Under the pieces are notes generated by a model. It saw only the letters and a list, made by a program, of their open reading frames with translations. It was not told the origin of the DNA and did no database searches. The position numbers were made by a program, and so were the translations under genes. A stretch of DNA of 20,000 nt from an uncultured virus (IMG/VR IMGVR_UViG_3300009152_000029) (Duplodnaviria; Heunggongvirae; Uroviricota; Caudoviricetes). The stretch lies in IMG/VR virus record IMGVR_UViG_3300009152_000029; one strand, written 5' to 3'. Every line of letters starts with the position of its first letter. Positions within the stretch are counted from its first letter, which is position 1. This document shows, piece by piece, positions 5,974 to 19,620 of this stretch.

Positions 5974-5995
5974 AGGAATGGTAATTACCATTCCT
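5974..5995. repeat. dispersed palindrome copy 5
   Basis: AGGAATGGT-AATT-ACCATTCCT. Confidence 0.9.
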
Positions 5996-6121: not shown

Positions 6122-6607
6122 ATGGAAGATATTTACCCGTACAGTTATGCAAAGTCCTATGCAATGGGCAGTAAGTTCAAGACGATTAAACAGTACTCCG
6201 ATGCTGTCAAGGCAGAAGGTCTCAGTTTTCACGCTGACCCTAAGCGTTACTCCGAGTATACCTCAGCCCATGAGTTCTTGGGTTACACCAAAGAGGAATA
6301 CACCAAAGTCAAGTGTTCCGTAATGGTGTCTAACCGAAACCAATCTGCGGTCAATGCTAAGATTAGGGCAACTTGGGCAAAGAACCGGGTATCACGTCAA
6401 GAAACGGCTGGTCAACTACCTTTGCCAAAGCCTAGCCAGTTGAAGGCTTTTACACCTGAAGAGGTTGTTGACATTCTAGTAAAGTCTAATGCAAGCAGTG
6501 AATACATTGCGGACTTTATCAAGACGCACAAGGTCAACAGTGAGTATGCTGTTGCGGTTTTGATTGACTTGTTGAAGCAAAGCCTTCCATCCGCAGTCAC
6601 AGTCTAA
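6122..6607 (+). CDS. protein with N-terminal integrase-repeat-like domain
   Basis: YPYSYAK.......FKT.KQY..........ADP..Y.......EFLG; promoter TTGACA(6047)-N17-TATACT; terminator 6616-6641. Confidence 0.7.
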   Translation: MEDIYPYSYAKSYAMGSKFKTIKQYSDAVKAEGLSFHADPKRYSEYTSAHEFLGYTKEEYTKVKCSVMVSNRNQSAVNAKIRATWAKNRVSRQETAGQLPLPKPSQLKAFTPEEVVDILVKSNASSEYIADFIKTHKVNSEYAVAVLIDLLKQSLPSAVTV

Positions 6608-6662
6608 CCTGACTATCTCCCCTCCAGAAGTGGAGGGGAGAATAATCTTGACAAAATACTTA

Positions 6663-6683
6663 AGGCATTGTAGTACAATGCCT
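6663..6683. repeat. dispersed palindrome copy 6
   Basis: AGGCATTGT-AGT-ACAATGCCT with perfect TTGACA/TGTCAA at 9 bp on both sides. Confidence 0.9.
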
Positions 6684-6756
6684 ATTGACAATTGTCAAAT
6701 TTTTTCATAAAATACTTATGCATGAAAATGCAAAATAAAGTTTCAAGGTAAATGAA

Positions 6757-6957
6757 TTGAAGAAAATTCACCTCTCTAATTTCCGTAAGAAGTTTGATGA
6801 CAAGTCTTACCAGGCTGTCAAGGATGCTATTGGTAAGAATGCTTTTTTAGCTAATGAAATCAATATCAATAAGATTATTGATAGTATTACAGACCCAGTC
6901 ATTAAGAAGAATTTTGTCAAGTGGTCTGATGGTTATGATTTTGCAATTCTTAATTAA
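6757..6957 (+). CDS. hypothetical protein
   Basis: 66 aa ORF, TTG start uncertain. Confidence 0.55.
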   Translation: MKKIHLSNFRKKFDDKSYQAVKDAIGKNAFLANEININKIIDSITDPVIKKNFVKWSDGYDFAILN

Positions 6958-7094
6958 AAAGGTTTACTCTTAACATTTTTAGTAATAAGAAACTAGTTTG
7001 GTTCTCACGGAGTAAAAAAAGAAAAATTTCTGTTTTTACCATCCAGATGTTGATAGGTATATTGCCCTTAAGTCAATAATCTAGCAGGCCAACA

Positions 7095-7127
7095 AATATC
7101 CCTCTTTTCAGTAAGAGGGATATTTTT
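7095..7127 (+). terminator. intrinsic terminator
   Basis: AAATATCCCTCTT/AAGAGGGATATTT. Confidence 0.7.
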
Positions 7128-7178
7128 ATTTGACAACTCCCAATATATGCGTTATTATATACACATAAGGAGAGCGAT

Positions 7179-7526
7179 ATGGGACTTGATAACCTTTGGA
7201 AAAAAAATGACAACGAAGACGCTATGGTAGAAGGCGATTTTTGCATCTGTGGCGGTCTATGTTCTGACAATGGAAACTCTTCATTTCGTGGTAAAGTTTA
7301 TGCTCGTTTTGTAGAAGATGTCACTGGTGTTTGTTTGTATGGCGACCCAAAAACTTCCAAAATTTCAAACGAAACTGTAAAGCAGATGGCAACTGACTTG
7401 GAAGAAACTGAATGGCGAGATTCTTACATCCAAAACTATGATATTGAAGAGCAAGAGTTTAAAGACCTTGCTAGGATGTTTAGACTTCACGCTGATGCTG
7501 GTCATTACTTGGTTGCTTTTTATTAA
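7179..7526 (+). CDS. hypothetical phage protein (MGLD start)
   Basis: TTGACA(7130)-N17-TATTAT, SD AAGGAG. Confidence 0.85.
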   Translation: MGLDNLWKKNDNEDAMVEGDFCICGGLCSDNGNSSFRGKVYARFVEDVTGVCLYGDPKTSKISNETVKQMATDLEETEWRDSYIQNYDIEEQEFKDLARMFRLHADAGHYLVAFY

Positions 7527-7780
7527 TGACTATCAATCTACGTAAAAACATAGCACGGTTTATCTACATTATTGACCAAACAACAAATGTAGAAAGCCGT
7601 GCAAAAATTCTCAAAGAACTAGACCTAACTGAAAATGAATTTCAGGAGCTGGTAGTGAATCTATTGAAATTTAGTAATTCTAATAATAGGGAATTTTATT
7701 GCTGCAATCCTGAATATCATGGATTTATTGAAACATTCAAAATTATTTCAGAAAAAACAAATACAGAGTTCTTAATCTAA
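7526..7780 (+). CDS. hypothetical protein
   Basis: TAATG translational coupling with upstream ORF. Confidence 0.7.
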   Translation: MTINLRKNIARFIYIIDQTTNVESRAKILKELDLTENEFQELVVNLLKFSNSNNREFYCCNPEYHGFIETFKIISEKTNTEFLI

Positions 7781-7892
7781 GTGCATCTGCGTTGAATATT
7801 ATGTATAATATTATCAGACCTTAGTCAAATAAGGCAATAAAAAACAGGCAAGACCCCTCCACTTGCCTGTTTTTTATTTAACAATTATCTTA

Positions 7893-7914
7893 AGGTGTGG
7901 TAAAGACCACACCT
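7893..7914. repeat. dispersed palindrome copy 7
   Basis: AGGTGTGGT-AAAG-ACCACACCT, after terminator hairpin near 7836-7878. Confidence 0.9.
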
Positions 7915-8064
7915 TTATAAATTTGTCAAAATATTTTTTTCAGCTCTAAAATAGGTAACTTTTTTTGTTACATATCTCCCGATTTCTATTGCACACTTTT
8001 AAAGTATGCCTTATACTATCTTTGTCAGTAAGGAAAAGCCCTTAACTGTTGTTTGGAGAAGACA

Positions 8065-9477
8065 ATGTTTGAAGACCTTACACCCTTGAACGAGATTCGT
8101 TCAGTGGAACCAACCGTTTCATTCACCCGTAACCAGAACTCTGGTCACACACTTAATTCCGCTCTTCTAGAGCCTATCGACAACTCATTCGATAGCGGTG
8201 CTACACAAATCAGTGTATATCTTTCAACCTATAATGGCAAGAAGGTTCTCGTTGTTGCAGACAATGGCAAGAAGGCTTTGACACCATCCATTATGCATAT
8301 GATGGCAAGCGAAGGCTGGACTACCAAAAAGGTAAGCACCATTGTATCACCTAACCTTGGCAAGAATGGTTCGGGATGGAAGAACTTTGTATCCAAGTTC
8401 TCAACCACTGGTCATTCTACCGTCATCATGAAATGCGAAGATGAGTGCATTCACGCAATGGAATACAACCAGAGCAATATGAAAGCAATGGACGATTGGA
8501 ACGTGTCCGTACGCAAGTGCCACTCTCGCATCAATCCTGATGACCCAGCCCTTTCAATTTGGAAAGAGGTCACAGATGAGAATGGCAACTTTATGAACCA
8601 CGGTACTATCGTTGTGGTTCATAACCTGAAAGACGAAGCCTCCTCATTCCTTAAGAATGGACTGAACTTTAACCCGAATGGTTTAAAGAACCTTACTAGC
8701 ATCGGGGCGCAACTTGGTGAGGTATACCAAAAGCGTATCGAAAAGGGTGCATCTCTTAAGGTCGGTCTGACTTATGCAACTCTTCAGGTAGTCAAGCCTT
8801 TAGACCCAATGCTACGACAAACTCCTGTTCAATCCAAGGTGTTCCACGTTGGCAATGAGGATGTGAAGGTGTCTGTGTTCCTTTTGCCAGAGCGTTCCGA
8901 GTGCAAACTATTGCCCAAGGATGTGTACAATCGCCCTGTGAATAACCAAAACTCTGGTGTGTATTTCTACCGTGATGGTCGATTGCACCTAGACAGCAAG
9001 TGCCGTCCTATGCACCCTGCAATTGGTAACAAGGCAATCGAAGCGTACATTGATGGTTATGCCAACGGTACAATTGGCAAGCGAAAGACCACTATTTCGA
9101 GAGAGAGCCGTTCTTGGGTAGTGTTTGCCGACAGCCATGGTCGTGCTTCAAGAGTGCGAATCACCATTGAGGTTTCCTCTAACCTTGACAAGGATTTCAA
9201 TGTAAACCAAATCAAGACAGAGATAGACTTGACCAATGATTCAGTTGCCGACATCGCACTATGGTGTTACCAGATGCCCAAGGAATACGACCAGTATCGC
9301 AATAAGAATGCATCGTACACCTATGTGGACAAATGGCGTAGCCTTACAAAGGGATACCGCAGTGATGTCCTCAAGGCAAGGAAGCACGTTCTTGCAACCT
9401 TTCGACCTGAAGAGTTGAAAATTGCCAAACTGGTACTGAGCAAGTTCACTGAGAGCCTCGGCGAGGTGGTCGAATAG
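8065..9477 (+). CDS. GHKL (MORC-like/HATPase_c_3) ATPase domain protein
   Basis: ALLEPIDNSFDSGA (N box), VVADNG (G1), LGKNGSGWK (G2), HGTIVVV; S5-like GVYFYRDGRL; SD GGAG; promoter TTGCAC(7989)-N17-TATACT. Confidence 0.85.
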   Translation: MFEDLTPLNEIRSVEPTVSFTRNQNSGHTLNSALLEPIDNSFDSGATQISVYLSTYNGKKVLVVADNGKKALTPSIMHMMASEGWTTKKVSTIVSPNLGKNGSGWKNFVSKFSTTGHSTVIMKCEDECIHAMEYNQSNMKAMDDWNVSVRKCHSRINPDDPALSIWKEVTDENGNFMNHGTIVVVHNLKDEASSFLKNGLNFNPNGLKNLTSIGAQLGEVYQKRIEKGASLKVGLTYATLQVVKPLDPMLRQTPVQSKVFHVGNEDVKVSVFLLPERSECKLLPKDVYNRPVNNQNSGVYFYRDGRLHLDSKCRPMHPAIGNKAIEAYIDGYANGTIGKRKTTISRESRSWVVFADSHGRASRVRITIEVSSNLDKDFNVNQIKTEIDLTNDSVADIALWCYQMPKEYDQYRNKNASYTYVDKWRSLTKGYRSDVLKARKHVLATFRPEELKIAKLVLSKFTESLGEVVE

Positions 9478-9483
9478 ACCACC

Positions 9484-9516
9484 AAGCCCCCTCCTTCGGG
9501 AGGGGGCTTTTTTTTT
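9484..9516 (+). terminator. intrinsic terminator
   Basis: AAGCCCCCTCC-TTCG-GGAGGGGGCTT plus T-tract. Confidence 0.9.
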
Positions 9517-9556
9517 GTCAAGTCAAGCTGTCAAATTATTTTTGCAACTTTATCGA

Positions 9557-9578
9557 AGGTATGGTGACCACCATACCT
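9557..9578. repeat. dispersed palindrome copy 8
   Basis: AGGTATGGT-GACC-ACCATACCT. Confidence 0.9.
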
Positions 9579-9643
9579 GTAAAATCTTTGCAATATTTTT
9601 TTCTCTTGAAATTTCATCATATAACAGATATAATATGTCTGTT

Positions 9644-10090
9644 ATGATTATTTCCTTCGAAGCGTCAGCAAGTGAAGACACAACTTTATTTGGCTATTTC
9701 TCTATGGAGTATGACCCAGAATTCTTCTCTGATATTAAAGAGAACCTCACAGATATACCCAAAAACAAACCACTTGCCTTTAAACTTGATACTGATAATG
9801 TGAAATTACTACAAGGCGCATTTCACACTATCCGTAGAATCATCTGCGTCCCAGATATTGAACAGCAAAAATTCACTTATGTATTTAAGCACAATTTTAA
9901 ATCAGGAACAGCAAAGAAATTTAAGTATGCTAAATTACACATAGACAAAGATTACTTTTACTTTACTGGGCATCACGAAAATTTAGATGGAACAAAGCCA
10001 GTAGAATTTCAATCATTAAATTTTGATGTACGTTTTATCGACACTATTCAAAATCAATTTATCAAGCACCAAGAAAACATGGTAAACTAA
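9644..10090 (+). CDS. hypothetical protein
   Basis: ORF 9515..10090 trimmed to start downstream of promoter TTGAAA(9606)-N17-TATAAT. Confidence 0.7.
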   Translation: MIISFEASASEDTTLFGYFSMEYDPEFFSDIKENLTDIPKNKPLAFKLDTDNVKLLQGAFHTIRRIICVPDIEQQKFTYVFKHNFKSGTAKKFKYAKLHIDKDYFYFTGHHENLDGTKPVEFQSLNFDVRFIDTIQNQFIKHQENMVN

Positions 10091-10093
10091 ACT

Positions 10094-10435
10094 ATGGAAC
10101 CTACAGTGTGGATTTACTTTTCAAAAACAGGTACAGGATACGAACTTAAAGGTTCTGATGTAATTTCAGGCTTTGATGCATTTATTAATGTTGATGGCAC
10201 TTATATGGTAGAGTATGCCTTCTCTGATATGAAGAATTCGATGCACTTCTTTATATATGAGTGGGACAATTCACAGAAGAAGCGCAGAACAATTTTTGAA
10301 GGATACCAGAGAGAAAATATTTTGGTGAACTTTGCAAAGAATGTTGATATATGTCATTTAGTTAGACAAGCAATTTACAAAGAATACCTGATGGATAATG
10401 AAGAATTGGAGTTAGAGAAAAATGCAAACTCTTGA
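10094..10435 (+). CDS. hypothetical protein
   Basis: 113 aa ORF, operonic spacing. Confidence 0.75.
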   Translation: MEPTVWIYFSKTGTGYELKGSDVISGFDAFINVDGTYMVEYAFSDMKNSMHFFIYEWDNSQKKRRTIFEGYQRENILVNFAKNVDICHLVRQAIYKEYLMDNEELELEKNANS

Positions 10436-10934
10436 ACAGAAAATAAAGTATCTGAAAAAGACAATTGAAACATTATGGCATGGTGTTTCTGAAACTAAGG
10501 AAGGCGATTACCCACGTATAATTTCACTTTATAAAGAAGTGTTGATGCATGATTACCACGATGCTGATTCTTGGGAAAATATGATTTGGCTTATGTGGAG
10601 TATGGCAATCAACAAGCAAGATACAGTGTGGCTATTCCAAGCAGAAAAGTTCGCAAAACGCTATCTTTCTCTTAATCCAAATGGTTATCGTGCTTATGAA
10701 TACCTTGGTCAGTTCTATCGTATTATGTATGTAGATTTGAAGTTGGCAATTAGATATTATGAATCTGCAATTAGATGGAAAGATGCTCCGAAAAGCACTC
10801 ATCATTCTCTTATTAGTGTGTGTGAAAAATCTGGTGATAAAATAAGAGCCATTGGATATTGCAAAATGACTCTTGCACGTTTCCCCAATGACCCTTACAC
10901 TAAAAGTAAATTGGAAGTATTGACCAAGCTTTAG
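10422..10934 (+). CDS. TPR-like helical repeat protein
   Basis: LNPNGYRAYEYLGQFY...AIRYYESAI and AIGYCKMTLARFPND resemble TPR units. Confidence 0.7.
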   Translation: MQTLEQKIKYLKKTIETLWHGVSETKEGDYPRIISLYKEVLMHDYHDADSWENMIWLMWSMAINKQDTVWLFQAEKFAKRYLSLNPNGYRAYEYLGQFYRIMYVDLKLAIRYYESAIRWKDAPKSTHHSLISVCEKSGDKIRAIGYCKMTLARFPNDPYTKSKLEVLTKL

Positions 10935-10997
10935 GCTTGGTCATCTTCTTTTTTGAGTATAAATAGAATTGATAGGCCAAAACAAACTAGAGTACCT

Positions 10998-11306
10998 ATG
11001 ATACTGAAAAATGCCATTTTTGAGCCCTCCCATACAATGAAAGAAATAGTAACAGCAATTTATCAAAATGGAGAGTTTACAGATAATAATATCTTAAAAC
11101 CTCATTTGACAGATAGAATTGGAATTAGAATGAAGTTTCCCGAAGGCGCTGGATGTATCTTATGGACTAACGGGAAGAAATACTATGCAGTTTGCGAAGC
11201 GTTTGGAACAGTCTTCACTATTAATATTCCACGTAACATAGGTGATGACATTTGGGATAGATTTAAAACATACTATGAAGGAAATTATTCTTACAAACCA
11301 TTCTAG
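10998..11306 (+). CDS. hypothetical protein
   Basis: Part of ORF 10953..11306; TATAAATA at 10958 upstream of ATG 10998. Confidence 0.65.
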   Translation: MILKNAIFEPSHTMKEIVTAIYQNGEFTDNNILKPHLTDRIGIRMKFPEGAGCILWTNGKKYYAVCEAFGTVFTINIPRNIGDDIWDRFKTYYEGNYSYKPF

Positions 11307-11326
11307 GGATGATAAATATCATCCCT
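11305..11326. repeat. dispersed palindrome copy 9
   Basis: AGGGATGAT-AAAT-ATCATCCCT, overlapping the stop codon. Confidence 0.85.
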
Positions 11327-11409
11327 AATTTTTTTTGTCAAATATTTTTATTTTACTTGCACACCATATACATGATGATATAATAAGTCATCAAACCAAG
11401 GAGTCTGAA

Positions 11410-11751
11410 ATGACGAAAAAAGAAGTTATCAATCTATTCATGAGTGCTGTTGGTCAATACACCTCTGCAATCGACAAGACAGCAGAATCGAACATTCAGT
11501 TTAAGAAGAGCGTTTATGCTCTTGAAGATGCAGTAAATCTCATCTATCGTAATGTTGATGCAAAAGAACTTGGAAGCAATGCAGAAGCACGAAATGCTAA
11601 GGTTTCTGAAAAGACCCAAGACCTGATTGTTGCAAAGCGTGAAGCAGAATATCTATTAGAGACAGCTCGTGCCAATGAATCTCGTATCAAAGCAGAAGTA
11701 GACCAGATGAAGTATATCATTCGTGCTTTGGAAGCGAAAGAAGAAGCATAA
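11410..11751 (+). CDS. coiled-coil hypothetical protein
   Basis: TTGCAC(11357)-N16-TATAAT, SD AAGGAG, ATG 11410; terminator 11758-11787. Confidence 0.85.
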   Translation: MTKKEVINLFMSAVGQYTSAIDKTAESNIQFKKSVYALEDAVNLIYRNVDAKELGSNAEARNAKVSEKTQDLIVAKREAEYLLETARANESRIKAEVDQMKYIIRALEAKEEA

Positions 11752-11803
11752 TTGTGCAAAAGAGGGCTAAAAAGCCCTCTTTTTTTTGTTGAAAATAAAC
11801 TTA

Positions 11804-11825
11804 AGGAATGGTAAATACCATTCCT
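11804..11825. repeat. dispersed palindrome copy 10
   Basis: AGGAATGGT-AAAT-ACCATTCCT. Confidence 0.9.
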
Positions 11826-11903
11826 TAAAAAACTTGTCAAATATATTTATTTTCTTGACATCTATACAATATGTGTTATACTATTCGTGTAAGGAGTTAG
11901 GAT

Positions 11904-12215
11904 ATGGAAATTTCAATCGAAGGTTCTTTCGAAGTTAATTATCATTTGGTGATTGACGAAGACGTGTTCAATGAGTGCTGTGAAGAGGCTGGTCTTGACC
12001 CAGCAAACTTTAAGAAGTTCACCAAAGCCCAGTGGGATGAACTCAATCCTCATTTTGTTCAGGCTGTGATTGACAACGAAGCAGATATTGACTACAATGA
12101 AATCCACGAAGAAAGTACAGTTTATGCTGATACTTTGACTATTGATGACAGTGACCAGATGACCACTGTTTACTATGAAGAAAACCGTAAGACAGGTTCT
12201 GTAGAAATTTTGTAG
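11904..12215 (+). CDS. acidic hypothetical protein
   Basis: TTGACA(11855)-N16-TATACT, SD AAGGAG. Confidence 0.85.
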   Translation: MEISIEGSFEVNYHLVIDEDVFNECCEEAGLDPANFKKFTKAQWDELNPHFVQAVIDNEADIDYNEIHEESTVYADTLTIDDSDQMTTVYYEENRKTGSVEIL

Positions 12216-12253
12216 GAAAGGAATGGAGGGACTATGTCCCTCCAAGCTTGATT

Positions 12254-12424
12254 ATGTTATTAGATGATTACCCTATTGTCATCTGGTTTGTACGCAAAAG
12301 TAGAAACAGTTACTTATTATTTGACTCTGCAAATCAGCTCGTAATGAGAAGAGATGAAAAAAGAAAGAAAGAAATATACCAATATTGTGATGATAATGGT
12401 ATAGAAGTTCAAGAAGAGTTTTAA
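12254..12424 (+). CDS. small hypothetical protein (56 aa, not in ORF track)
   Basis: MLLDDYPIVIWFVRK...NGIEVQEEF, ends directly at terminator. Confidence 0.55.
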   Translation: MLLDDYPIVIWFVRKSRNSYLLFDSANQLVMRRDEKRKKEIYQYCDDNGIEVQEEF

Positions 12425-12425
12425 A

Positions 12426-12455
12426 ATAAATCCCAAGAAAAATCTTGGGATTTAT
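12426..12455. terminator. TCCCAAGA-family bidirectional terminator
   Basis: ATAAATCCCAAGA-AAAA-TCTTGGGATTTAT. Confidence 0.75.
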
Positions 12456-12459
12456 CTTT

Positions 12460-12480
12460 AGGTGTGTAAATCACACACCT
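12460..12480. repeat. dispersed palindrome copy 11
   Basis: AGGTGTGT-AAATC-ACACACCT. Confidence 0.8.
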
Positions 12481-12539
12481 GTAAAAATTTGTCAAATAAA
12501 AATATATCCCTTGACTTTCGTCAAGGGATATGATATAGG

Positions 12540-12905
12540 CTACTTCATTTCAAAAATGAATGCTGGTGAATTATCCCAATTTGGATTTGGGCTAAAAGGC
12601 TTATACAAGCGGTCTAAACTTGGGCTGTAAATATAAGTGGTTCCAGCCATTTCACCATTGTCAGGATTTGCAGTCCAGATTTCTTTACCATAGGAGCCTT
12701 TGAAATCTCCAAAGTAATTATAAGGAATCTGGTCATTGTAAACAAAGAAATAATAGACTGATGGGTTTGCTTTGTATTGTGTTACGATAAAGTGCTTGCC
12801 ATCAAACCAAGTACCTTGACCTACATATGCAATACAGGATGACCTATCGCTAACATCCTCAAGTCGAACTCTCATTACCATTCGTTTTGCAGTAGTGTTT
12901 TCCAT
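12540..12905 (-). CDS. hypothetical protein (leaderless)
   Basis: Minus-strand TTGCAA(12940)-N17-TATATT-N6-ATG; terminator hairpin 12504-12531. Confidence 0.8.
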   Translation of the reverse strand: MENTTAKRMVMRVRLEDVSDRSSCIAYVGQGTWFDGKHFIVTQYKANPSVYYFFVYNDQIPYNYFGDFKGSYGKEIWTANPDNGEMAGTTYIYSPSLDRLYKPFSPNPNWDNSPAFIFEMK

Positions 12906-12974
12906 ACCTGTAATATATCATCTGTATTATATGATTGCAAGAAAATTCTCATCTAAAAATAGTTTAAATAGTTC

Positions 12975-13003
12975 TTGTGCTTTACCCATAGATAGTGTAT
13001 TAT
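12975..13003 (+). promoter_or_regulatory. sigma70-type promoter for ncRNA candidate
   Basis: TTGTGC-N17-TATTAT. Confidence 0.6.
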
Positions 13004-13009
13004 ATTGGT

Positions 13010-13278
13010 GTGGGTCAGTATCCGCATTACAGTAAAAGACCAGAACGGCTAGAATCTATTGCGAGATTCAAACAAGGGTAGCAACCTTGGAGTGGTTAAG
13101 TCCACAATCTTTTACTGAAACCTTGGAGATGGTTGACGCAAACAATCTATCCAAGTGTAATGATTTGTGGTTGGGTGCTATGCTCCTTTTAGGACACGGG
13201 CATCATCGTAGGCAGAGACCATCGAAAGAACTGCCCTTGTGTTACGTACTGGTTGAAATCCAGCTAGCCACAAATCCA
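13010..13278 (+). ncRNA. candidate ~270 nt structured ncRNA with tRNA-like 3' domain
   Basis: Own promoter and terminator, no credible ORF, GC-richer than flanks, many nested stems. Confidence 0.7.
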
Positions 13279-13315
13279 AATAAATCCTCTAAGAATTTTC
13301 TTGAGGGTTTATTCT

Positions 13316-13336
13316 AGTTATGGTAATACCATAACT
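13316..13336. repeat. dispersed palindrome copy 12
   Basis: AGTTATGGT-AAT-ACCATAACT. Confidence 0.85.
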
Positions 13337-13400
13337 AAAGTTATTTCGCAAATAAATTTATTTTCTTGCATTGTCTTTATAACTGAGGTAATATATTGCT

Positions 13401-13655
13401 ATGAACAAGCATATCGAAATCACCCGCCATCTTACAGTAGATGGCACAAGCACTTACTATGTTCTTGAGAAGAGCAAGAATTCTTCAAGCATCATTTGGA
13501 ATGGCACTTGCAAACAAGCCGCTTATCAAGTTGCGTATCGTAATGCTCGTAAGGAAAATACTCCTCTTTATGACACTCTATACAAGGCTGAATTAGACCG
13601 TAATGGTGTAAAGCATATCATTCCTGTTGGCAATGAACTGCTGGAAGTAAACTAA
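13401..13655 (+). CDS. hypothetical protein (leaderless)
   Basis: TTGCAT(13366)-N17-TAATAT-N6-ATG; terminator near 13659-13682. Confidence 0.8.
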   Translation: MNKHIEITRHLTVDGTSTYYVLEKSKNSSSIIWNGTCKQAAYQVAYRNARKENTPLYDTLYKAELDRNGVKHIIPVGNELLEVN

Positions 13656-13719
13656 AGCAAAGCCCCTGTAAAAAGGGGCTTGATTATTTATATTATAATG
13701 GTATAATTAGGTAACGACA

Positions 13720-13836
13720 ATGAAGTGGATATATCTAATGCTAACTCTATTTATTTTGCCTTTTGCTTTTATGGCTTGTGGCTTCTTTACAATCGCTTGT
13801 ACTATTGAAAAGTACGTAAGACAAAAACATTCTTAA
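13720..13836 (+). CDS. small membrane peptide (38 aa, not in ORF track)
   Basis: MKWIYLMLTLFILPFAFMACGFFTIACTIEKYVRQKHS, after TGG-TATAAT promoter and before terminator. Confidence 0.55.
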   Translation: MKWIYLMLTLFILPFAFMACGFFTIACTIEKYVRQKHS

Positions 13837-13838
13837 AT

Positions 13839-13872
13839 AAATAAATCCCAAGAATTTTCTTGGGATTTATTT
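13839..13872. terminator. TCCCAAGA-family bidirectional terminator
   Basis: AAATAAATCCCAAGAA/TTCTTGGGATTTATTT. Confidence 0.75.
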
Positions 13873-13874
13873 TC

Positions 13875-13896
13875 AGGGATGGTACTTACCATCCCT
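13875..13896. repeat. dispersed palindrome copy 13
   Basis: AGGGATGGT-ACTT-ACCATCCCT between convergent genes. Confidence 0.9.
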
Positions 13897-14139
13897 TTAT
13901 TTTTTCCTCAACTTTTTTTCTTTCACTGGCTTGACACAATTTACTGTTGCAGCTTCTCCACCTACTTTGATTTCGTTTGGTAGTGGATTTTCTTTAATCA
14001 TCACAGATTTCTTACAATCAGCACATTCCAAGGCATAACAATCATTTCCCAGAATAAGCCAATTTTTCACATTATGCCCACGAGAAAGGACTGTATTCTT
14101 TGTCTCTTCCATCAAACCGAGTATGCTAAATATTCCCAT
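13897..14139 (-). CDS. hypothetical zinc-ribbon-like protein (leaderless)
   Basis: RGH..W...CADC...C motif; minus-strand TG-A-TATAAT-N6-ATG. Confidence 0.7.
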   Translation of the reverse strand: MGIFSILGLMEETKNTVLSRGHNVKNWLILGNDCYALECADCKKSVMIKENPLPNEIKVGGEAATVNCVKPVKEKKLRKK

Positions 14140-14201
14140 GCCGTTATTATATCAGAAAAATAATACTTGCACACGTATATAATCTTTGGTATATTAGTGC
14201 T

Positions 14202-14462
14202 ATGAGAACAGTACTTTGGAACAATACAGAGCGATGGTTCAATCATCACCATTATGAACTATTGATAGAGGATGTCACTGGTTTTGACCTGAAGAAAAGC
14301 CTGTGTGAACAATCTGTCAAGTATATGGCAAAAAGATTATCAGAGACTAAATATCAAAGACGGTTTAAGACATTGTATACCATTTACGAAAATGAATACA
14401 ATGCACTTGTTGAAAAATTCAACAATCAAGCAGACAATAACGGAAAGATAGAGGTAGCATGA
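14202..14462 (+). CDS. hypothetical protein (leaderless)
   Basis: TTGCAC(14167)-N17-TATATT-N6-ATG. Confidence 0.8.
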   Translation: MRTVLWNNTERWFNHHHYELLIEDVTGFDLKKSLCEQSVKYMAKRLSETKYQRRFKTLYTIYENEYNALVEKFNNQADNNGKIEVA

Positions 14463-14611
14463 TGAAAAAATTCAAGAAGTTTATTGAAGAACTGGCTATC
14501 GCATCAGGCACAGAAATGATGCGAGCAAGTCAGATGCGTCCAAGTACTTTCAAGGACAAGTCAAAGTACTCCAGAAAGCAGAAGCACAAGAAAGGTTCCG
14601 AAAATGAGTAG
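14459..14611 (+). CDS. small basic protein with ArfA-like motif (50 aa, not in ORF track)
   Basis: MMKKFKKF...FKDKSKYSRKQKHKK; ATGA overlap, GAGGT SD. Confidence 0.65.
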   Translation: MMKKFKKFIEELAIASGTEMMRASQMRPSTFKDKSKYSRKQKHKKGSENE

Positions 14612-14912
14612 TATTGAAGTGCAAGTAAATGTAGAAGAACTTGATGTTGTAAGACGAAAGTTATCTTTTCAATTAAACAAAGATTTAACATCTGAGGAAA
14701 CAGTTAAATTCTTAATTGAAAGAGAATTTAACATCGCAAAAAAAATTCCCCTTGCAAAAAAATCACCTAATAGAGCTGAAAAATCTGATATCAAAGAATG
14801 CATCTATAATGGTTCTACCTCTGGTGAAGCAATGAAAAAATTAAATGTATCAAGGTCTACATTCTTCAGACACAAAGCAAAAGAGAGAAAGTTGCTAGAG
14901 GAATCTGAATAA
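14604..14912 (+). CDS. C-terminal helix-turn-helix protein
   Basis: GSTSGEAMKKLNVSRSTFFRHK resembles Hin/resolvase-type HTH. Confidence 0.7.
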   Translation: MSSIEVQVNVEELDVVRRKLSFQLNKDLTSEETVKFLIEREFNIAKKIPLAKKSPNRAEKSDIKECIYNGSTSGEAMKKLNVSRSTFFRHKAKERKLLEESE

Positions 14913-14917
14913 ATAAT

Positions 14918-14945
14918 AAATCCCAAGAGAATTCTTGGGATTTTT
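14918..14945. terminator. TCCCAAGA-family terminator
   Basis: AAATCCCAAGA-GAAT-TCTTGGGATTT. Confidence 0.75.
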
Positions 14946-14960
14946 CTTGCATAAAATTTA

Positions 14961-14982
14961 AGGTATGGTAAATGCCATACCT
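14961..14982. repeat. dispersed palindrome copy 14
   Basis: AGGTATGGT-AAAT-GCCATACCT (T-G at inner pair). Confidence 0.85.
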
Positions 14983-15014
14983 TAAAAAATTTGTCAAATA
15001 AAAAAACAGGGTTT

Positions 15015-15158
15015 TCACCCTGTTGCATATGTATATCCTTGCAATCCGTGTTTTTTGATTGCGTGTTTGATGCCTGCCATAGTAGTTGTTGAAACTACAC
15101 AAACATCTCTTATATAAAGATTGAACATACCAAACTCTAACTTAATTATACCTATCAT
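15015..15158 (-). CDS. small hypothetical protein
   Basis: ATGA overlap with upstream minus-strand gene. Confidence 0.6.
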   Translation of the reverse strand: MIGIIKLEFGMFNLYIRDVCVVSTTTMAGIKHAIKKHGLQGYTYATG

Positions 15159-15532
15159 ATTGTTCCTTCCAAGAAATTGAAATCGCTGATGACTGGCGGG
15201 CAATAATCATCAGGTTGCTTGAATGCACCAAGATATTGCTTATACTTATATTGAAACTTGTCAGCTTTGGTGATTAGCACAGGATACACAGTCATAACGT
15301 AACCTAACGAATTGATTGCAATTTCCATTCTTTTGTGATTCACTACAGTCTCAAATGTCATTGAATAGACATCCCTCTTAAGGGTGCGATACAGAAACTT
15401 TGATTCTAGTGGAAGAAAATCTACTAAAGGCAAATCTCTTTCAATCGTACGTAATTCAGCGTGTTCCGTGTAAGTTAGTAACTTGTCAAACCAATAAAGT
15501 GGGTTTTCCCATTCTGTGTTGTAGCAAACCAT
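15155..15532 (-). CDS. hypothetical protein
   Basis: Minus-strand TTGAAT(15588)-N17-TATAAT, SD AGGA. Confidence 0.8.
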   Translation of the reverse strand: MVCYNTEWENPLYWFDKLLTYTEHAELRTIERDLPLVDFLPLESKFLYRTLKRDVYSMTFETVVNHKRMEIAINSLGYVMTVYPVLITKADKFQYKYKQYLGAFKQPDDYCPPVISDFNFLEGTI

Positions 15533-15653
15533 CGTCCTATACCCTTCAATTGATAAGGTATTATATCGTGTGACACCTGAGTATTCAAATTAAATAATAC
15601 TTGACACGTCATATACTACTTGATATACTCTCTTTGTAAGTAAGGAGGTAGTT

Positions 15654-15926
15654 ATGAGAACTACAAGGAATTCGGATAGGCTTCGTGAGATTTTGTTTTG
15701 TACACGCAATCAGATTGTTTCTCTCAAGGACATTCAGATGGATATGATGCGTATCGACAGTAAAGTGGCAAATCAAATCGCAACACAAATATCTGCTCTT
15801 GAGGAAGTTTACAAGCACCAACTATCGCTTGTCACACAGGCAGAGAATGTAGAGCCAAAGCGTGAAGGTTGGCTTTCTGGTCACTTCAAAACCAAAGAAG
15901 ACCGATTAGCCAACATCATGGATTAA
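15654..15926 (+). CDS. hypothetical protein
   Basis: TTGACA(15601)-N17-TATACT, SD AAGGAGG. Confidence 0.85.
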   Translation: MRTTRNSDRLREILFCTRNQIVSLKDIQMDMMRIDSKVANQIATQISALEEVYKHQLSLVTQAENVEPKREGWLSGHFKTKEDRLANIMD

Positions 15927-16000
15927 ATAAATACCCCAGAGATGGGGTATTTTTCTTGACATTATATATACAATCTGGTATATTTACTGTGGAGGTTGTT

Positions 16001-16150
16001 ATGAAGAACTTGTATGCTAAGAAGTGCTGTTGGTGCAAAGTAGTGGTTCAGCCAGGTCAAGGTAAGTGCTGGAGCTACAATGATAAATGGTGGGTTGGAT
16101 GCCAGAGTTGTTTGGATGATAAGTTCAAAGATGAAGACAAGGAGGCTTAG
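16001..16150 (+). CDS. small CxxC..CxxC zinc-finger-like protein
   Basis: TTGACA(15956)-N17-TATATT, SD GGAGG, CCWC...CQSC. Confidence 0.75.
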   Translation: MKNLYAKKCCWCKVVVQPGQGKCWSYNDKWWVGCQSCLDDKFKDEDKEA

Positions 16151-16178
16151 GCCTCCTATTTTTTTGACATTTTACTTA

Positions 16179-16200
16179 AGGCACGGTATTTACCGTGCCT
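16179..16200. repeat. dispersed palindrome copy 15
   Basis: AGGCACGGT-ATTT-ACCGTGCCT with perfect TTGACA/TGTCAA at 9 bp on both sides. Confidence 0.9.
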
Positions 16201-16278
16201 ATAAATTTTTGTCAAATATATTTTTTAAATTTGCATCTTATATAATTTGTGTTATACTATTGGTGTAAGGAGTTTGAT

Positions 16279-16611
16279 ATGAGAGATTTTATGACCCTTG
16301 GACCAGTTCCATTTGAAGAAGAATGCATCCAAGTTAGCCCAGAAGTTGACTACACTGAAATGCGTAATGAAGTTTTCAAGTTTGTCAACCTTTTAAAAGA
16401 ACGGTTTGTTAACATCCCTGAAAACGCTTATTTTGGTATCAAGCGTGAAAGCCATGACTTCGGTACTTACTTTGAAGCGGCTGTTTATTGGGATACTGAA
16501 GACACTGATTCCCAAACGTTTGCATTCTTTGTAGAATCAAACTTACCAGCACATTGGAGTGACGATGCAAAAATTGACTGGTCAGCTGAATATGTAACTG
16601 CTGGCGAATAA
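16279..16611 (+). CDS. hypothetical protein (HDFGTY motif)
   Basis: TTGCAT(16231)-N16-TATACT, SD AAGGAG. Confidence 0.85.
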   Translation: MRDFMTLGPVPFEEECIQVSPEVDYTEMRNEVFKFVNLLKERFVNIPENAYFGIKRESHDFGTYFEAAVYWDTEDTDSQTFAFFVESNLPAHWSDDAKIDWSAEYVTAGE

Positions 16612-16650
16612 ACTAAAAGAATCCCAAGAAAAATCTTGGGATTTATCTTT

Positions 16651-16671
16651 AGTTATGGTATTACCATAACT
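16651..16671. repeat. dispersed palindrome copy 16
   Basis: AGTTATGGT-ATT-ACCATAACT after TCCCAAGA terminator 16620-16643. Confidence 0.85.
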
Positions 16672-16764
16672 TCAAAATTTTATCAAAAAAAATTTTTACT
16701 CAAAATTAATCATATGTACGATGTGATATACTACAGGATGTAACAACAACAGAAAGGTTTCTCT

Positions 16765-17046
16765 ATGAAAAAAATTCTTTTTAACACCAACTATACCAAC
16801 TATACCAATGAAGAGGTAAATATTATTCAAGACACATTGAAGAAAAAAAGTGTTATAATGACTAAATTTACACAGGTAGAAATTGCAGAGATGATGGGAG
16901 TCAAACAGCCACAAGTAAGTAACTGGCTTAATGGTAAGAGAATTCCTACAGCATCTAATTTAGTTAAGTTAGCAGATATATTAGAAGAATACCCTGAAGA
17001 ATTATTAAATAAATTAGAAGTTATTAAGCAAGAGAATAATTTTTGA
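16765..17046 (+). CDS. XRE/Cro-C1 family HTH transcriptional regulator
   Basis: TQVEIAEMMGVKQPQVSNWLNGKRIPTASNLVKLADIL. Confidence 0.88.
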   Translation: MKKILFNTNYTNYTNEEVNIIQDTLKKKSVIMTKFTQVEIAEMMGVKQPQVSNWLNGKRIPTASNLVKLADILEEYPEELLNKLEVIKQENNF

Positions 17047-17115
17047 ATAATGCCCCAGTAAAAATGGGGCAAAAATTCTTATTGACAAGTATATGATAGA
17101 TGATATACTTACTCT

Positions 17116-17337
17116 ATGAAACTTGAACAGGTATTGCCAATGCTCCGTGATGGTAAGACTATCACAAGAAGCAAAAAGTGGAATCCTAATTCTACTAATG
17201 TTATCTTGGTAAAACTAGAAGAATCAGAACTTAAATTTAAATGTGTTTGGTCTACTGGTGAAGAAATGAGTTTTTGGGCTTGTTATACTTTAAAGACTGA
17301 AGATGTATTGGCAGAAGATTGGGAGGTAGCAGGATGA
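17116..17337 (+). CDS. DUF2829/Tad2-like protein (leaderless)
   Basis: L..GK.ITR..WN N-terminus and DVLAEDWEV C-terminus; TTGACA(17082)-N16-TATACT-N6-ATG. Confidence 0.7.
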   Translation: MKLEQVLPMLRDGKTITRSKKWNPNSTNVILVKLEESELKFKCVWSTGEEMSFWACYTLKTEDVLAEDWEVAG

Positions 17338-17654
17338 CAGAAGAGATTATTAATAGAACAATACAGGTTTTTCTTTACACTGGTGGCATTGTTGCTTTTT
17401 GGCAGATTACAAAGCATATGCCTAAAGCACTATATACATTGCTTGAGTGTATAACAGTTATGACGTGTAGCGTTTTGTTGCTCACGCCATTTTCTATGAT
17501 TATTGAATACATCTTGGGTGGCAACATTGACACCACAATGATGTTTGTAGCAGGTCTTGCTACAGTTAGTTTGTTGTCTACTATGTGGATGGTTATGGTA
17601 CAATCATCAAGAGAGTTACAAGGAAAGAAGCAATACAAATATGTTGTTCTCTAA
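17334..17654 (+). CDS. membrane protein (about 3 TM segments)
   Basis: Hydrophobic stretches; ATGA overlap, SD GGAGG. Confidence 0.75.
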   Translation: MTEEIINRTIQVFLYTGGIVAFWQITKHMPKALYTLLECITVMTCSVLLLTPFSMIIEYILGGNIDTTMMFVAGLATVSLLSTMWMVMVQSSRELQGKKQYKYVVL

Positions 17655-17985
17655 GAACGGTTTTAAGAGCGTTGACACTACCGAAGAGTTTGTAAAGCAA
17701 GCGATAGAATTTGGTCAAAAAGACATAGTCTTAAGTGTAGCACATGGCAATGGTGTTATTGATATAGTCATAAGTCCAACAATGGATGCTATAGAAGCAG
17801 ATGTATACCATTTTCTCAATGATGACACAGAATTGAAATATTCTATGCCAATCAAAACCCTCACTGATAATAACATATCATCTTTGGCTTTGACTAGTGC
17901 AATTCATGCATACTTGTCTGAAGCGTTCAAAGTAGCTGAAATGTTCCGAAGCACTACCAGACAAAGCACTGACTACGCAAAGTAA
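17641..17985 (+). CDS. hypothetical protein
   Basis: Part of ORF 17557..17985 from ATG 17641; terminator 17992-18016. Confidence 0.7.
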   Translation: MLFSKNGFKSVDTTEEFVKQAIEFGQKDIVLSVAHGNGVIDIVISPTMDAIEADVYHFLNDDTELKYSMPIKTLTDNNISSLALTSAIHAYLSEAFKVAEMFRSTTRQSTDYAK

Positions 17986-18032
17986 AAAAAGTTCCCCAGA
18001 AATGGGGAATTTTTTTATTGTGAACTATCTTA

Positions 18033-18054
18033 AGGTACGGTAAATACCGTACCT
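18033..18054. repeat. dispersed palindrome copy 17
   Basis: AGGTACGGT-AAAT-ACCGTACCT. Confidence 0.9.
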
Positions 18055-18131
18055 ATAAAATTTTGTCAAATATTTAAAATATATTGCACAATATATACAG
18101 CCTGATATAATCATAGTGTAAGGAGTTAGTT

Positions 18132-18509
18132 ATGAACATTGTAGCATTGGTAAACATTGAGCGTATTCTTGAAGAAGTACGCAACAACATCAGAGGCTTT
18201 TATATTTCTATAGAGGGTGATATCAAGGAACGTGAATTTGACAAAGTTATAGATGGCAACCAGTACTTTGATATTGACAAAATCAAGTCAGATGCTAACT
18301 ACGATTACTTTGAAATCGCATACACAGGTGATGAATCCGTGATTTTCATTTGTGATGAAGAAGGACAGCTTAAAACAAAGTTCAAGGATGATGTAGAGAT
18401 TGGTAACTATAACATGATAGCAAGTGCAATTTACCAAAAACTTTGTAAGAGAGATAATGTGCATTTGTTTGGTGATGTTGTAATTTGCCATACATCAAGG
18501 GTTTATTAA
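18132..18509 (+). CDS. DUF3846-like phage protein
   Basis: ICDEEGQLK...N..AS...LFGDVVI motif; TTGCAC(18084)-N16-TATAAT, SD AAGGAG. Confidence 0.7.
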   Translation: MNIVALVNIERILEEVRNNIRGFYISIEGDIKEREFDKVIDGNQYFDIDKIKSDANYDYFEIAYTGDESVIFICDEEGQLKTKFKDDVEIGNYNMIASAIYQKLCKRDNVHLFGDVVICHTSRVY

Positions 18510-18578
18510 CGTATAATAAACTTGGGCTTGCATTACTTCCAAAAAAAACCTCAGGAATTTTTCTTGAGGTTTTTTTAT

Positions 18579-18600
18579 AGGAATGGTAAATACCATTCCT
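18579..18600. repeat. dispersed palindrome copy 18
   Basis: AGGAATGGT-AAAT-ACCATTCCT between convergent genes. Confidence 0.9.
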
Positions 18601-18653
18601 TACGAATATTGTTAAATAAAAATATCCCTTGACTTTTGTCAAGGGATATGATA

Positions 18654-18857
18654 TCACCATTCGATATCGCCTCCACCGTAGTCTTCATCAGTTCCCCAGC
18701 CTGCTGATGCCAAAGCGTTTGCATCAGCCCATTGGTCATCACAATCTGGTTCATTGTCGAACTGTTCATCCAGTTCCTCATCCGTCATATAATCCATTGG
18801 GTCAACATCAACGCTAGGAAAAATTCTTGCTTCCAACTCCGCTTCAATATAATCCAT
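18654..18857 (-). CDS. small, highly acidic protein
   Basis: Minus-strand TTGACA(18908)-N17-TATACT, SD AAGGAG; ALASAGWGTDEDYG motif. Confidence 0.8.
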   Translation of the reverse strand: MDYIEAELEARIFPSVDVDPMDYMTDEELDEQFDNEPDCDDQWADANALASAGWGTDEDYGGGDIEW

Positions 18858-18965
18858 TGTTCTAACTCCTTACTGCTTAAGTATAACACTTATTATATAG
18901 GGTGTCAAGAACTATTTTTAAAAGATATATCTTGCATCCTATACACAAGATGATATACTATTGCT

Positions 18966-19166
18966 ATGAACACTACAGACAAGGTAATCGTAAAATTCAA
19001 GAGCCGTGTGCCAAAGATGCTCTACACTGCACACTACAATGGAATCCTTCTTGCATCAGGACGTGACCCAATCGACTTGGGCGAGTACTATGCATCCAAG
19101 TACTGCACAGAATGGATTCTGTGCGATGGCAATAACTTTTACACGCAAAGAGGAGTTAATAAGTAA
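18966..19166 (+). CDS. hypothetical protein (leaderless)
   Basis: TTGCAT(18932)-N16-TATACT-N6-ATG. Confidence 0.75.
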   Translation: MNTTDKVIVKFKSRVPKMLYTAHYNGILLASGRDPIDLGEYYASKYCTEWILCDGNNFYTQRGVNK

Positions 19167-19405
19167 TGGCGCATTATTACTTGAACAATGGTGGTACACG
19201 TTGGGTAACTGACAGCAAGATTCAAGTCGTTGGAATTCATAATGGTAAACGATACAGCAAGATGCGCAAACCATTATTCTGGGAACAATTTGGAAACTTT
19301 GTACGTTGTTATGTTCGTGTTGGCGATAATGTTTACCGTGGTGCTACCGAAGACAACAATGGTGTGATAGAATTAAGACTAGACAAGAGTTACAGACTTA
19401 AATGA
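19166..19405 (+). CDS. hypothetical protein
   Basis: TAATG coupling, SD AGGAG. Confidence 0.75.
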   Translation: MAHYYLNNGGTRWVTDSKIQVVGIHNGKRYSKMRKPLFWEQFGNFVRCYVRVGDNVYRGATEDNNGVIELRLDKSYRLK

Positions 19406-19620
19406 ACAATTACAGGCAAAAGGCTCTCTCTCTTTGGTCGGCTTTGCTGGCTGAAGAGAGATGGCATAAGTTTGAAAGCACCAATTGTAAACCATCATGT
19501 AAAGGGTGGAATGGTTGGGCACCTTATTGCGAGTGTTTTGAGAATTTTTGCACATTCGTTCCTCAAGGTGATATTGAAGATATGGAATTGGTTATTAAAA
19601 CAAGACCATTAACTTTCTGA
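19402..19620 (+). CDS. hypothetical Cys-rich protein
   Basis: ATGA coupling; C..SC.GW.G...CEC motif. Confidence 0.7.
   Translation: MNNYRQKALSLWSALLAEERWHKFESTNCKPSCKGWNGWAPYCECFENFCTFVPQGDIEDMELVIKTRPLTF

Follow-up and report, generated by a model that had tools for sequence, protein, structure and literature searches.

Phage T4 carries, within its tRNA operon, the stable RNA known as RNAC, which is the 139-nt species 1 RNA. Other structured RNAs invite comparison: GOLLD and ROOL, large RNAs of phages and prophages that often lie near tRNAs, are roughly 600-800 nt long and behave as self-assembling multimers; bacterial Y RNAs (YrlA) are partners of Ro60/Rsr; and in MALAT1-mascRNA, the MHV68 TMERs and engineered tRNA scaffolds a tRNA-shaped unit is placed on an unrelated RNA for processing or stability. 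According to the literature on T4, RNAC and its companion RNAD are stable RNAs of the phage tRNA region whose roles are still unknown (PMC3014915). Y RNAs are reported in some jumbo phages that carry TROVE proteins (PMC7824862), and a 2023 study catalogues candidate structured RNAs from IMG/VR, 8,495 in number (PMC10690425).

The stretch of DNA analysed here, hereafter the window, is 20,000 nucleotides long and corresponds to bases 157729-177728, read on the reverse strand, of a 358,269-bp IMG/VR virus record (IMGVR_UViG_3300009152_000029; G000), for which the CheckV completeness estimate is 89% and the GC content 33.7%. Pfam searches with 40 large ORFs indicated a giant tailed phage, returning a weak large-terminase match, a Mu-type portal, a DnaE-type polymerase, DnaB, gyrase A, ribonucleotide reductase, GroEL and Hsp70. 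The genome also contains nine tRNA genes in two clusters. A related terminase is encoded in more than 195 viral contigs, and the sequencing runs that contain the RNA stretch are of freshwater or lake origin. Positions 13010-13276 (+ strand) of the window encode a stable RNA, about 250-265 nt long and non-coding, in which a 5' hairpin is followed by a 130-nt core (one four-way junction and one hairpin) and then by a 115-nt tail shaped like a cloverleaf. The features of the cassette are as follows.

12976..13003, + strand: promoter, read from the sequence, with -35 TTGTGC (12976-81), a 16-nt spacer and -10 TATTAT (12998-13003).
13010..13025, + strand: P0, the 5'-terminal hairpin GTGGGT-CAGT-ATCCGC, whose sequence varies while the hairpin is kept.
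13030..13117, + strand: core four-way junction, made up of P1, a mini-helix, P2, P3 and P4.
13030-38 / 13109-17, + strand: P1, CAGTAAAAG / CTTTTACTG, three pairs changed on both sides.
13040-41 / 13047-48, + strand: mini-helix CC / GG.
13052-57 / 13064-69, + strand: P2, loop ATTGCG, five of six pairs changed on both sides.
13073-77 / 13085-89, + strand: P3, with an invariant 7-nt loop GTAGCAA; never varies except for U·G/C-G.
13092-95 / 13102-05, + strand: P4, two pairs changed on both sides.
13122..13155, + strand: P5, the hairpin CTTGGA/TCCAAG plus GGTTG/CAATC with loop ACGCAAA, five pairs changed on both sides.
13059-63 / 13137-41, + strand: candidate loop-loop (kissing) pairing TTGCG / CGCAA.
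13162..13276, + strand: tRNA-shaped tail, made up of S1, S2, Ha/S4 and S5.
13162-73 / 13265-76, + strand: S1, the 12-bp closing stem, six pairs changed on both sides.
13174-79 / 13199-204, + strand: S2, GGTGCT / GGCATC, with an inner hairpin, seven pairs changed on both sides.
13207-10 / 13243-46, + strand: Ha, CGTA / TACG, the middle pair being G-C in 39 sequences, U-A in 5 and A-U in 1.
13211-15 / 13231-35, + strand: S4, GGCAG / CTGCC, enclosing an invariant 15-nt loop (13216-30, AGACCAUCGAAAGAA).
13249-52 / 13260-63, + strand: S5, CTGG / CCAG, with the T-loop-like TTGAAAT at 13253-59; abuts the 3' strand of S1.
13282..13310, + strand: terminator-like hairpin AAATCCTCTAAGA-ATTT-TCTTGAGGGTTT, read from the sequence.
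13315..13337, no strand assigned: cassette-junction palindrome TAGTTATGGTAATACCATAACTA, from the consensus scan list.

Among described systems, T4 RNAC is the closest analogue of this RNA. Like RNAC and RNAD, it is phage-encoded, non-coding, stable and linked to tRNA genes, and in the predicted fold of RNAC a T arm (CCGGGUUCGAAUCCCGG) lies directly before the 3' strand of the terminal stem, as S5 does before S1 here. Twice the length of RNAC, the present RNA is conserved chiefly in a core that is not tRNA, and as a rule it comes with a promoter and a terminator of its own. It stands directly before tRNA genes at one of 42 loci scanned. Covariance models of the core (R1, 156 bits at the window RNA) and of the tail (R2, 137 bits) were run on the T4 tRNA region; R1, with filters off on 69500-72500, gave 8.7 bits at best (E 0.13) and R2 gave no match.

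The initial annotation had proposed a stand-alone structured non-coding RNA on the + strand, and this was borne out: only one of 200 shuffles folded as well as 13010-13278 (+), the fold z-score was -3.67 on this strand versus -1.47 on the other, and the GC content is 45% against 33.7% for the genome. A cmscan of 12800-13500 against Rfam 15, as had been recommended, returned no matching family at gathering scores or at E up to 10, tRNA and riboswitch families included. A snoR20 match (22.4 bits, E 1.8), located past the end of the RNA on the other strand, was dismissed as chance. ARAGORN called four true tRNAs in the window, all elsewhere, and no tRNA or tmRNA at the RNA. The absence of both an Rfam match and an ARAGORN call, the strong covariation and the presence in RNA libraries together support the description "unrecognised phage RNA". 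That the locus instead encodes a protein has almost no chance of being correct. A 76-aa ORF with a TTG start is present at 13087-13317, and its conservation had been named as the observation that would speak for coding; among 45 homologues the frame is interrupted by in-frame stops in 36 and by net frameshifts in 25, its variable columns show no preference among codon positions (36, 41 and 33 of 64 each), and the ORF matched no PHROG family. The coding reading was thereby already refuted.

Homologues were collected by pattern scans. Motif scans of viral contigs gave 12 and then 22 loci, and a metagenome scan matched at least 120 stretches, of which 80 were examined. An extended core motif is present in 106 of the 115 loci examined: 87 have the standard form, seven bear an insert, ten are cut by a contig end and two have another form, while the nine lacking the extended motif are chance matches. 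The closest large relative, of 316 kb (terminase 76% identical), has an RNA region with 83% nucleotide identity to that of the window. The conserved stretch begins at 13030 and ends exactly at 13276; a different hairpin takes the place of the 5' hairpin, and 21 other bases lie between stem S1 and the terminator, which is kept through compensatory changes. The GenBank phage collection, from which records very near the window may be left out, contained no near or distant match to the RNA, and no tblastn match to the 474-aa neighbouring protein. An exact 28-mer scan of viral contigs was likewise without a match, and locus searches with two neighbouring proteins, one at a time, found no relatives. 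In prokaryotes (one genome per species, 185,579 species) the pattern occurred at seven places, only one of which was a true member, on a 4.3-kb contig binned in a Crocinitomicaceae MAG. That same MAG was the single carrier among 121 sampled Crocinitomicaceae genomes; hence the family is phage-borne, and the contig is probably a mis-binned phage fragment that gives no usable host assignment. The family is new to Rfam and widespread in uncultured freshwater phages. Literature searches found no description of the RNA, and six carrier contig numbers were absent from the searchable supplements of PMC10690425, three files of which are not searchable; the motif may be listed in that catalogue under a number.

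The structure was evaluated on an alignment of 45 sequences with mutual identity below 96%, drawn from 62 unique standard-form sequences. RNAalifold predicted 67 pairs, 26 of them with compensatory change. To these we added the 4-bp helix Ha, recognized by eye, the loop-loop pairing and three basal pairs of S1. The resulting 79 proposed pairs are 98.1% paired across the alignment, and 31 of them show changes on both sides. Shuffled alignments averaged 15.8 such pairs and none of 500 reached 31, and when partners were slid by one to three columns only four to nine were obtained. Relatedness among the sequences is ignored by the shuffle control but not by the slid one, whose outcome is just as clear. 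Covariation, which the annotation had suggested looking for in homologues, is strong.

Most of the 5' domain that had been read from the single sequence was recovered in the 45 homologues, including CAGTAAAAG/CTTTTACTG, GAATCT/AGATTC, CAAGG/CCTTG and GTGG/CCAC, as well as the helix of CTTGGA (13122) with TCCAAG (13150). The outer helix CATTAC/GTAATG, 47% paired in the family, was not sustained. At the 5' end lies P0: all 28 unique leaders form a hairpin, with minimum free energies of -6.6 to -12.2 versus shuffle means of -2.2 to -6.8, and at least four unrelated stem sequences serve as P0 across the family. Many single-stranded positions of the core are invariant. The invariance of the P3 loop was partly forced by the search patterns, yet the loop is also invariant in 12 loci found through the tail motif. 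The loops of P2 and P5 may possibly pair with each other, within one molecule or equally between molecules. This pairing can form in all 45 sequences, with two one-sided wobble changes and no changes on both sides, and we accordingly leave the contact as a proposal. In one sequence (L161), inspected by eye, a flanking position is altered in both loops so that an extra G-C pair could form. Mutual information on the 62 sequences, computed in search of further tertiary pairs, returned the known helices only. Pairings considered by eye (P3 loop with an S2 strand, the 15-nt loop with P5, and ACGG with CCGU) were discarded, as they vary or clash with covarying pairs, and no complementarity of the RNA to the leaderless "MENTT" start was seen.

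The 3' domain had been described as tRNA-like and ending in CCA. Its shape holds up: a four-way junction is closed by a stem on which a T-loop-like hairpin stacks directly, and the helices GGCAG/CTGCC and CTGG-TTGAAAT-CCAG are supported on the 45 homologues. Conservation of the T-loop columns U-U-R-A-A-N-U is complete or at least 90%, and the hairpin consensus GG-UU[G/A]AA-N-U-CC fits the tRNA pattern at G53, U54, U55, A57, A58 and C61. What sets the tail apart from tRNA (RF00005) is a closing stem of 12 rather than 7 bp, an invariant 15-nt loop where the anticodon loop would be, a purine at position 56 and a CCA that is not conserved. Together with the lack of a tRNA match (gathering cut-off 29 bits) and a negative ARAGORN result, the stem, the loop and the CCA led us to reject assignment to tRNA itself, so that the likeness is one of shape and not of tRNA score. 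From the stem first drawn with 13 bp, the pairs of 13162-13173 with 13265-13276 remain; the thirteenth, G13174-C13264, is indistinguishable from G13174-C13204. The alternative internal arm ACACGGGCA/TGCCCTTGTGT (ACACGGG/CCCUUGUGU) is 79.8% paired, has no real covariation and clashes with the covarying S2, and it is abandoned. The CCA at 13276-78 occurs in nine of the 45 sequences, overlaps the last pair of S1 and falls where the 316-kb relative has its unrelated bases; as judged by sequence comparison, it is a chance occurrence. None of the phage's own nine tRNAs has an encoded CCA either, and its absence from the gene is therefore uninformative about later addition.

Transcription presumably starts near 13010. 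The -35 element matches the consensus at only three of six positions, which is why the promoter was missing from the consensus-scan list, but relatives have TTGACA-17-TATTAT or TAATAT at the same place, and at least nine of 12 consensus matches were found in 28 of 72 unique upstream sequences, confirming a promoter at a conserved place. In those 28 sequences the distance from the -10 element to P1 is fixed at 28 or 36-40 nt. The terminator hairpin was missing from the same list owing to one mismatch; its reality is upheld by compensatory changes in relatives, e.g. AAACCCCC.../...GGGGGTTT. Of 64 unique downstream sequences, 40 have a hairpin with a T run after it; the hairpin is missing where tRNAs or a gene directly follow the RNA. 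The terminator lies 3-40 variable bases after S1. The palindrome downstream of the terminator had been regarded as one copy of a repeat, and a repeated family does exist: a related core, ATGGTAWWTACCAT, has 11 matches in the window versus 0.45 expected. The copy at 13315-13337, with a loop one base shorter, lies outside those 11.

Evidence of transcription came from sequencing runs. The RNA stretch was found in twenty of them, six being lake metatranscriptomes, in which 33-47% of the words of a 451-nt query were present, about the share of the query taken up by the RNA. When four of the metatranscriptomes, from four studies, were compared with window positions 12600-13800, each yielded exactly one whole contig.

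Run X11: 13021-13260, contig of 240 nt.
Run X16: 13032-13263, contig of 232 nt.
Run X17: 13019-13216, contig of 198 nt.
Run X19: 13020-13241, contig of 222 nt.

All four contigs bridge the joint between core and tail, with no loose ends, and the flanking genes within the 1.2-kb flanks are uncovered; jointly the contigs cover 13019-13263 only. A transcript check had been called for, and these contigs are good, if indirect, evidence that an abundant and discrete RNA with both domains is made. Since the contigs span the joint, cleavage there is not indicated. The contig ends need not be those of the RNA and may simply lie where strains differ, in the hypervariable 5' hairpin and in the S1 3' strand; nor do the contigs give strand or level. 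DNA carried over into the RNA libraries may contribute, although the flanks are absent.

Comparison of divergent loci revealed that the RNA is modular. In locus L123 (phage terminase 43% identical) a different cloverleaf, closed by a stem of 12 bp, stands after the core. It scores 28.5 bits end to end on the Rfam tRNA model (cut-off 29), has a degenerate anticodon arm and is uncalled by ARAGORN. L161 lacks the tail, and its core and P5 lead straight into a ribosome-binding site and a gene. At three loci an additional ~115-nt module separates P5 from S1, and four have a hairpin of ~25-40 nt in the bulge after S4. Across 447 kb of sequence, comprising the whole 358-kb and 70-kb genomes and including the T4 tRNA region, an R2 tail match was never found without the core. 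The swap in L123, the tailless L161 and the restriction of R2 to places beside the core identify the core as the constant part and the tail as an exchangeable accessory. In this RNA, then, the 5' hairpin may have any sequence, the 130-nt core hardly varies and the tRNA-shaped tail can be replaced. Paralogues in the 358-kb genome were considered and dropped, as core and tail alike are single-copy.

The RNA also crosses between phages that have little else in common. A 69,885-bp record (G008; CheckV 100% complete, 46% GC) lacks a homologue of the large terminase of the 358-kb phage and has an RNA 87% identical over 248 nt to that of the latter. At the nucleotide level these two genomes match at two places only, the RNA and a 67-nt piece of an acidic-protein gene. 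They have seven proteins in common, none of which adjoins the RNA in both; among what they share are a 72-aa ORF and the acidic 67-aa ORF, which lie 1-2 kb from the RNA in the 70-kb phage and 5-6 kb from it in the window. Pfam and PHROGs searches of the genes around the RNA were uninformative, except for a Mom-like gene ~400 nt downstream of it in the 70-kb phage, and most of the small flanking ORFs are without a known family. Flanking ORF clusters differ among loci; the commonest upstream cluster occurs at 39 of 72 and is absent from the window. In the 70-kb phage and in L161 a gene with a ribosome-binding site begins within ~20 nt of the RNA, and in L182 tRNA-Leu(UAA), tRNA-Lys and tRNA-Ser follow ~20 nt after it with no terminator between. 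This is the only one of 42 loci scanned with tRNA genes within 1.5 kb of the RNA; in the window the nearest tRNA is ~8 kb away. The RNA is an expressed, strongly constrained, horizontally exchanged and non-coding element.

Several described classes were considered and set aside. A tmRNA is contradicted by ARAGORN and Rfam and by the two ends of the RNA, each of which closes its own domain. Like YrlA, the present RNA is a composite of a tRNA-like module and a second module, but its modules are in tandem and not nested; a Y RNA was rejected as there was no Rfam match and neither TROVE nor RtcB (PF05731, PF01139) was found in the ~89% complete 358-kb genome. For a riboswitch, the downstream ORF clusters differ, the terminator stands at a variable distance from S1 and no Rfam riboswitch matched. 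The RNA resembles GOLLD and ROOL in being phage-borne, highly structured and occasionally beside tRNAs; it is 250 nt long, and no Rfam match to either was found at its locus. MALAT1-mascRNA, the TMERs and the tRNA scaffolds are eukaryotic, viral or artificial, and the contigs that bridge the joint distinguish the present RNA from them.

The reading that we prefer, tentatively and at somewhat under an even chance for the package as a whole, is that the RNA acts in trans on a conserved host component and is stabilized by a tRNA-derived tail. The core would be the working part, since no other module occurs in all forms of the RNA and since conservation is as high in the loops and junctions of the core as in its stems. 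The 87% identity of the RNA between phages otherwise sharing so few proteins, none adjacent to it in both, makes action in trans on something conserved in the host the most likely mode. We favour a core that binds, titrates or mimics a factor handling tRNA or other RNA over one that pairs with a phage-specific protein. Action on a host factor is thus suggested by distribution only. The tail would serve as a tRNA-derived handle which, together with the 5' hairpin, shields the ends of the RNA and lets it use the cell's tRNA maturation machinery, a role that fits an RNA heading a tRNA operon without its own terminator. We call the tail tRNA-derived for its shape, its T-loop-like motif and the one swapped relative, the window's tail itself being without a tRNA score. 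The long S1 stem may, by way of speculation, stop RNase P from severing core from tail. Where a gene starts within ~20 nt of the RNA, as in the 70-kb phage and L161, a cis role may be added. The earlier suggestion of a decoy against an anticodon nuclease or other defence sensor, or of a protein scaffold, is a guess. In a bolder version, to which we give a rather low probability, the core is a new functional fold spread as an exchanged cassette, being a tRNA-mimic decoy that disarms a tRNA-directed host defence or an RNA-processing enzyme, a new ribozyme or a self-assembler, and the tail is a natural "tRNA scaffold".

Other explanations account for parts of these data. Invariant loops and junctions are also what protein-bound RNAs display, and the RNA could be the scaffold of a ribonucleoprotein with a dedicated phage-encoded partner, hidden among the neighbouring small ORFs without known family; the 72-aa and acidic 67-aa ORFs near the RNA of the 70-kb phage would be candidates. 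The distance of these ORFs from the RNA in the window, the want of any ORF adjoining it in both genomes, the dissimilar flanking clusters and the failure of the 358-kb genome to encode a TROVE or RtcB protein make this scaffold unlikely. We consider it equally unlikely that the core is a self-contained fold, i.e. a ribozyme, a ligand-binding aptamer or a GOLLD/ROOL-like multimer joined through complementary loops. Its compact junction, the two invariant complementary loops UUGCG/CGCAA (intra- or intermolecular), the many invariant single-stranded positions and its independence of genomic context speak for such a fold, but no known ribozyme or riboswitch matched, no downstream gene is consistent and RNA contigs spanning both domains do not suggest a cleavage product. 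The tRNAs directly after the RNA in L182, and the ribosome-binding site and gene after it in the 70-kb phage and L161, would suit an element acting in cis, as structured leader of a downstream gene or tRNA operon or as a signal for its processing. This is improbable: the window and most relatives have a terminator of their own, the next gene has its own promoter, downstream genes differ and the RNA contigs stop short of the downstream gene. Strongly disfavoured, at a very small probability, is a functionless relic left by the decay of tandem tRNA genes. In its favour, each domain is a four-way junction, P3 (5 bp and a 7-nt loop) and P4/S5 resemble anticodon and T arms, and L123 has a near-tRNA; such a relic would hardly retain 87% identity across unrelated phages of 34% versus 46% GC, compensatory change at 31 pairs, its own promoter and a presence in RNA libraries.

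Taken on the comparative and expression data, this phage RNA family is real and uncatalogued, with solid support and an informative modular anatomy. It offers a tractable entry to the role of phage RNAs like T4 RNAC, being abundant in lake metagenomes, present in RNA libraries and common to unrelated phages, and the covariation support is good enough for an Rfam entry. The modular build, with a constant core, an exchangeable tail and an optional insert, shows which part to test, and it suggests that tRNA shapes serve phages as general-purpose handles on RNAs of other kinds. Should the core indeed target a host factor, an RNA would join the counter-measures of phages, which are mostly proteins; and if the new-fold reading is true, this would be the first RNA like T4 RNAC, in a class that is 50 years old, to have a defined mechanism.

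The stretch analyzed here and the 358-kb genome record that contains it (G000) differ at two bases, namely position 3319 (T in the window, A in the record) and position 13073 (C versus T). The latter is located in the first pair of P3 of the structured RNA (window 13010–13276), and three contigs from lake metatranscriptomes read this base as T. Across the family alignment, this pair is U·G in 31 sequences and C-G in the other 14 of the 45. The features considered in this part, both in the window and in other genomes carrying the RNA or related to G000, are as follows.

Features of the window, of G000 and of other genomes
Window 568–18596, 11 sites, and also 13315–13337: palindrome family with core ATGGTAWWTACCAT
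Window 1531–5071 and G000 133255–137251: nine phage tRNA genes
Window 8053–9477 (+): 474-aa ORF encoding an ATPase domain of the GHKL type (PF13589 at E 1.1e-08)
Window 12540–12905 (-): gene starting MENTT, divergent from the RNA
Window 18654–18857 (-): acidic 67-aa ORF with a C-terminal motif common to G008, an unrelated complete 70-kb phage
Window 19402–19620 (+): 72-aa ORF, 46% identical to an ORF of G008
L123 (locus of the RNA family) 499–571 (-): tRNA-like unit fused to the RNA core (28.5 bits)
L175 (locus in G008) 2–868 (-): Mom-like protein (PF25680, E 2.4e-09)
G006 205683–208889 and G010 16081–19287 (relatives of G000): split large-terminase match

Variant forms of the RNA were observed within the family. 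In L123, the acceptor stem of the tRNA-like unit is lengthened to ~12 bp, and a 4-nt loop occupies the position of the anticodon loop. Three other loci (L127, L136 and L213), together with the truncated L154, possess an additional module of ~115 nt between P5 and the tail, consisting of a closing stem and three hairpins; a search of Rfam with this module gave no match. None of the nine tRNA genes of G000 encodes a 3' CCA, and the bases that come next are TT or TA in each case.

Besides the RNA, the only match at the nucleotide level between G000 and the 70-kb phage is the stretch encoding the C-terminal motif of the acidic 67-aa ORF. The C-terminal motif found in both phages is WADANALASAG.GTDEDY.GG, and the ORF matches phrog_36991, a family of unknown function. 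The G008 counterpart of the 72-aa ORF is encoded ~1 kb from the RNA, and a search for a family to which the 72-aa ORF belongs returned no match. The Mom-like gene of G008 is located ~400 nt downstream of the RNA. The 474-aa ORF had no match in PHROG and no relatives in the GenBank phage collection.

The palindrome core was matched 11 times in the window against an expectation of 0.45. These palindromes separate small gene cassettes and are often situated 3' of a terminator-like hairpin, as at 18548–18600. Since the ATG of the MENTT gene directly abuts, on the 3' side, a promoter-like site at 12940–12912, this gene may be leaderless; its 14-base start is found again, with one mismatch, at window position 1915 (feature 1915–2409, +).

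In both G006 and G010, the large-terminase match is composed of two pieces (residues 2–258 and 235–703) lying ~1 kb apart within a single open frame of 1077 aa. The terminase of these relatives looks, from its sequence, as if it carries an in-frame insertion, for example an intein.
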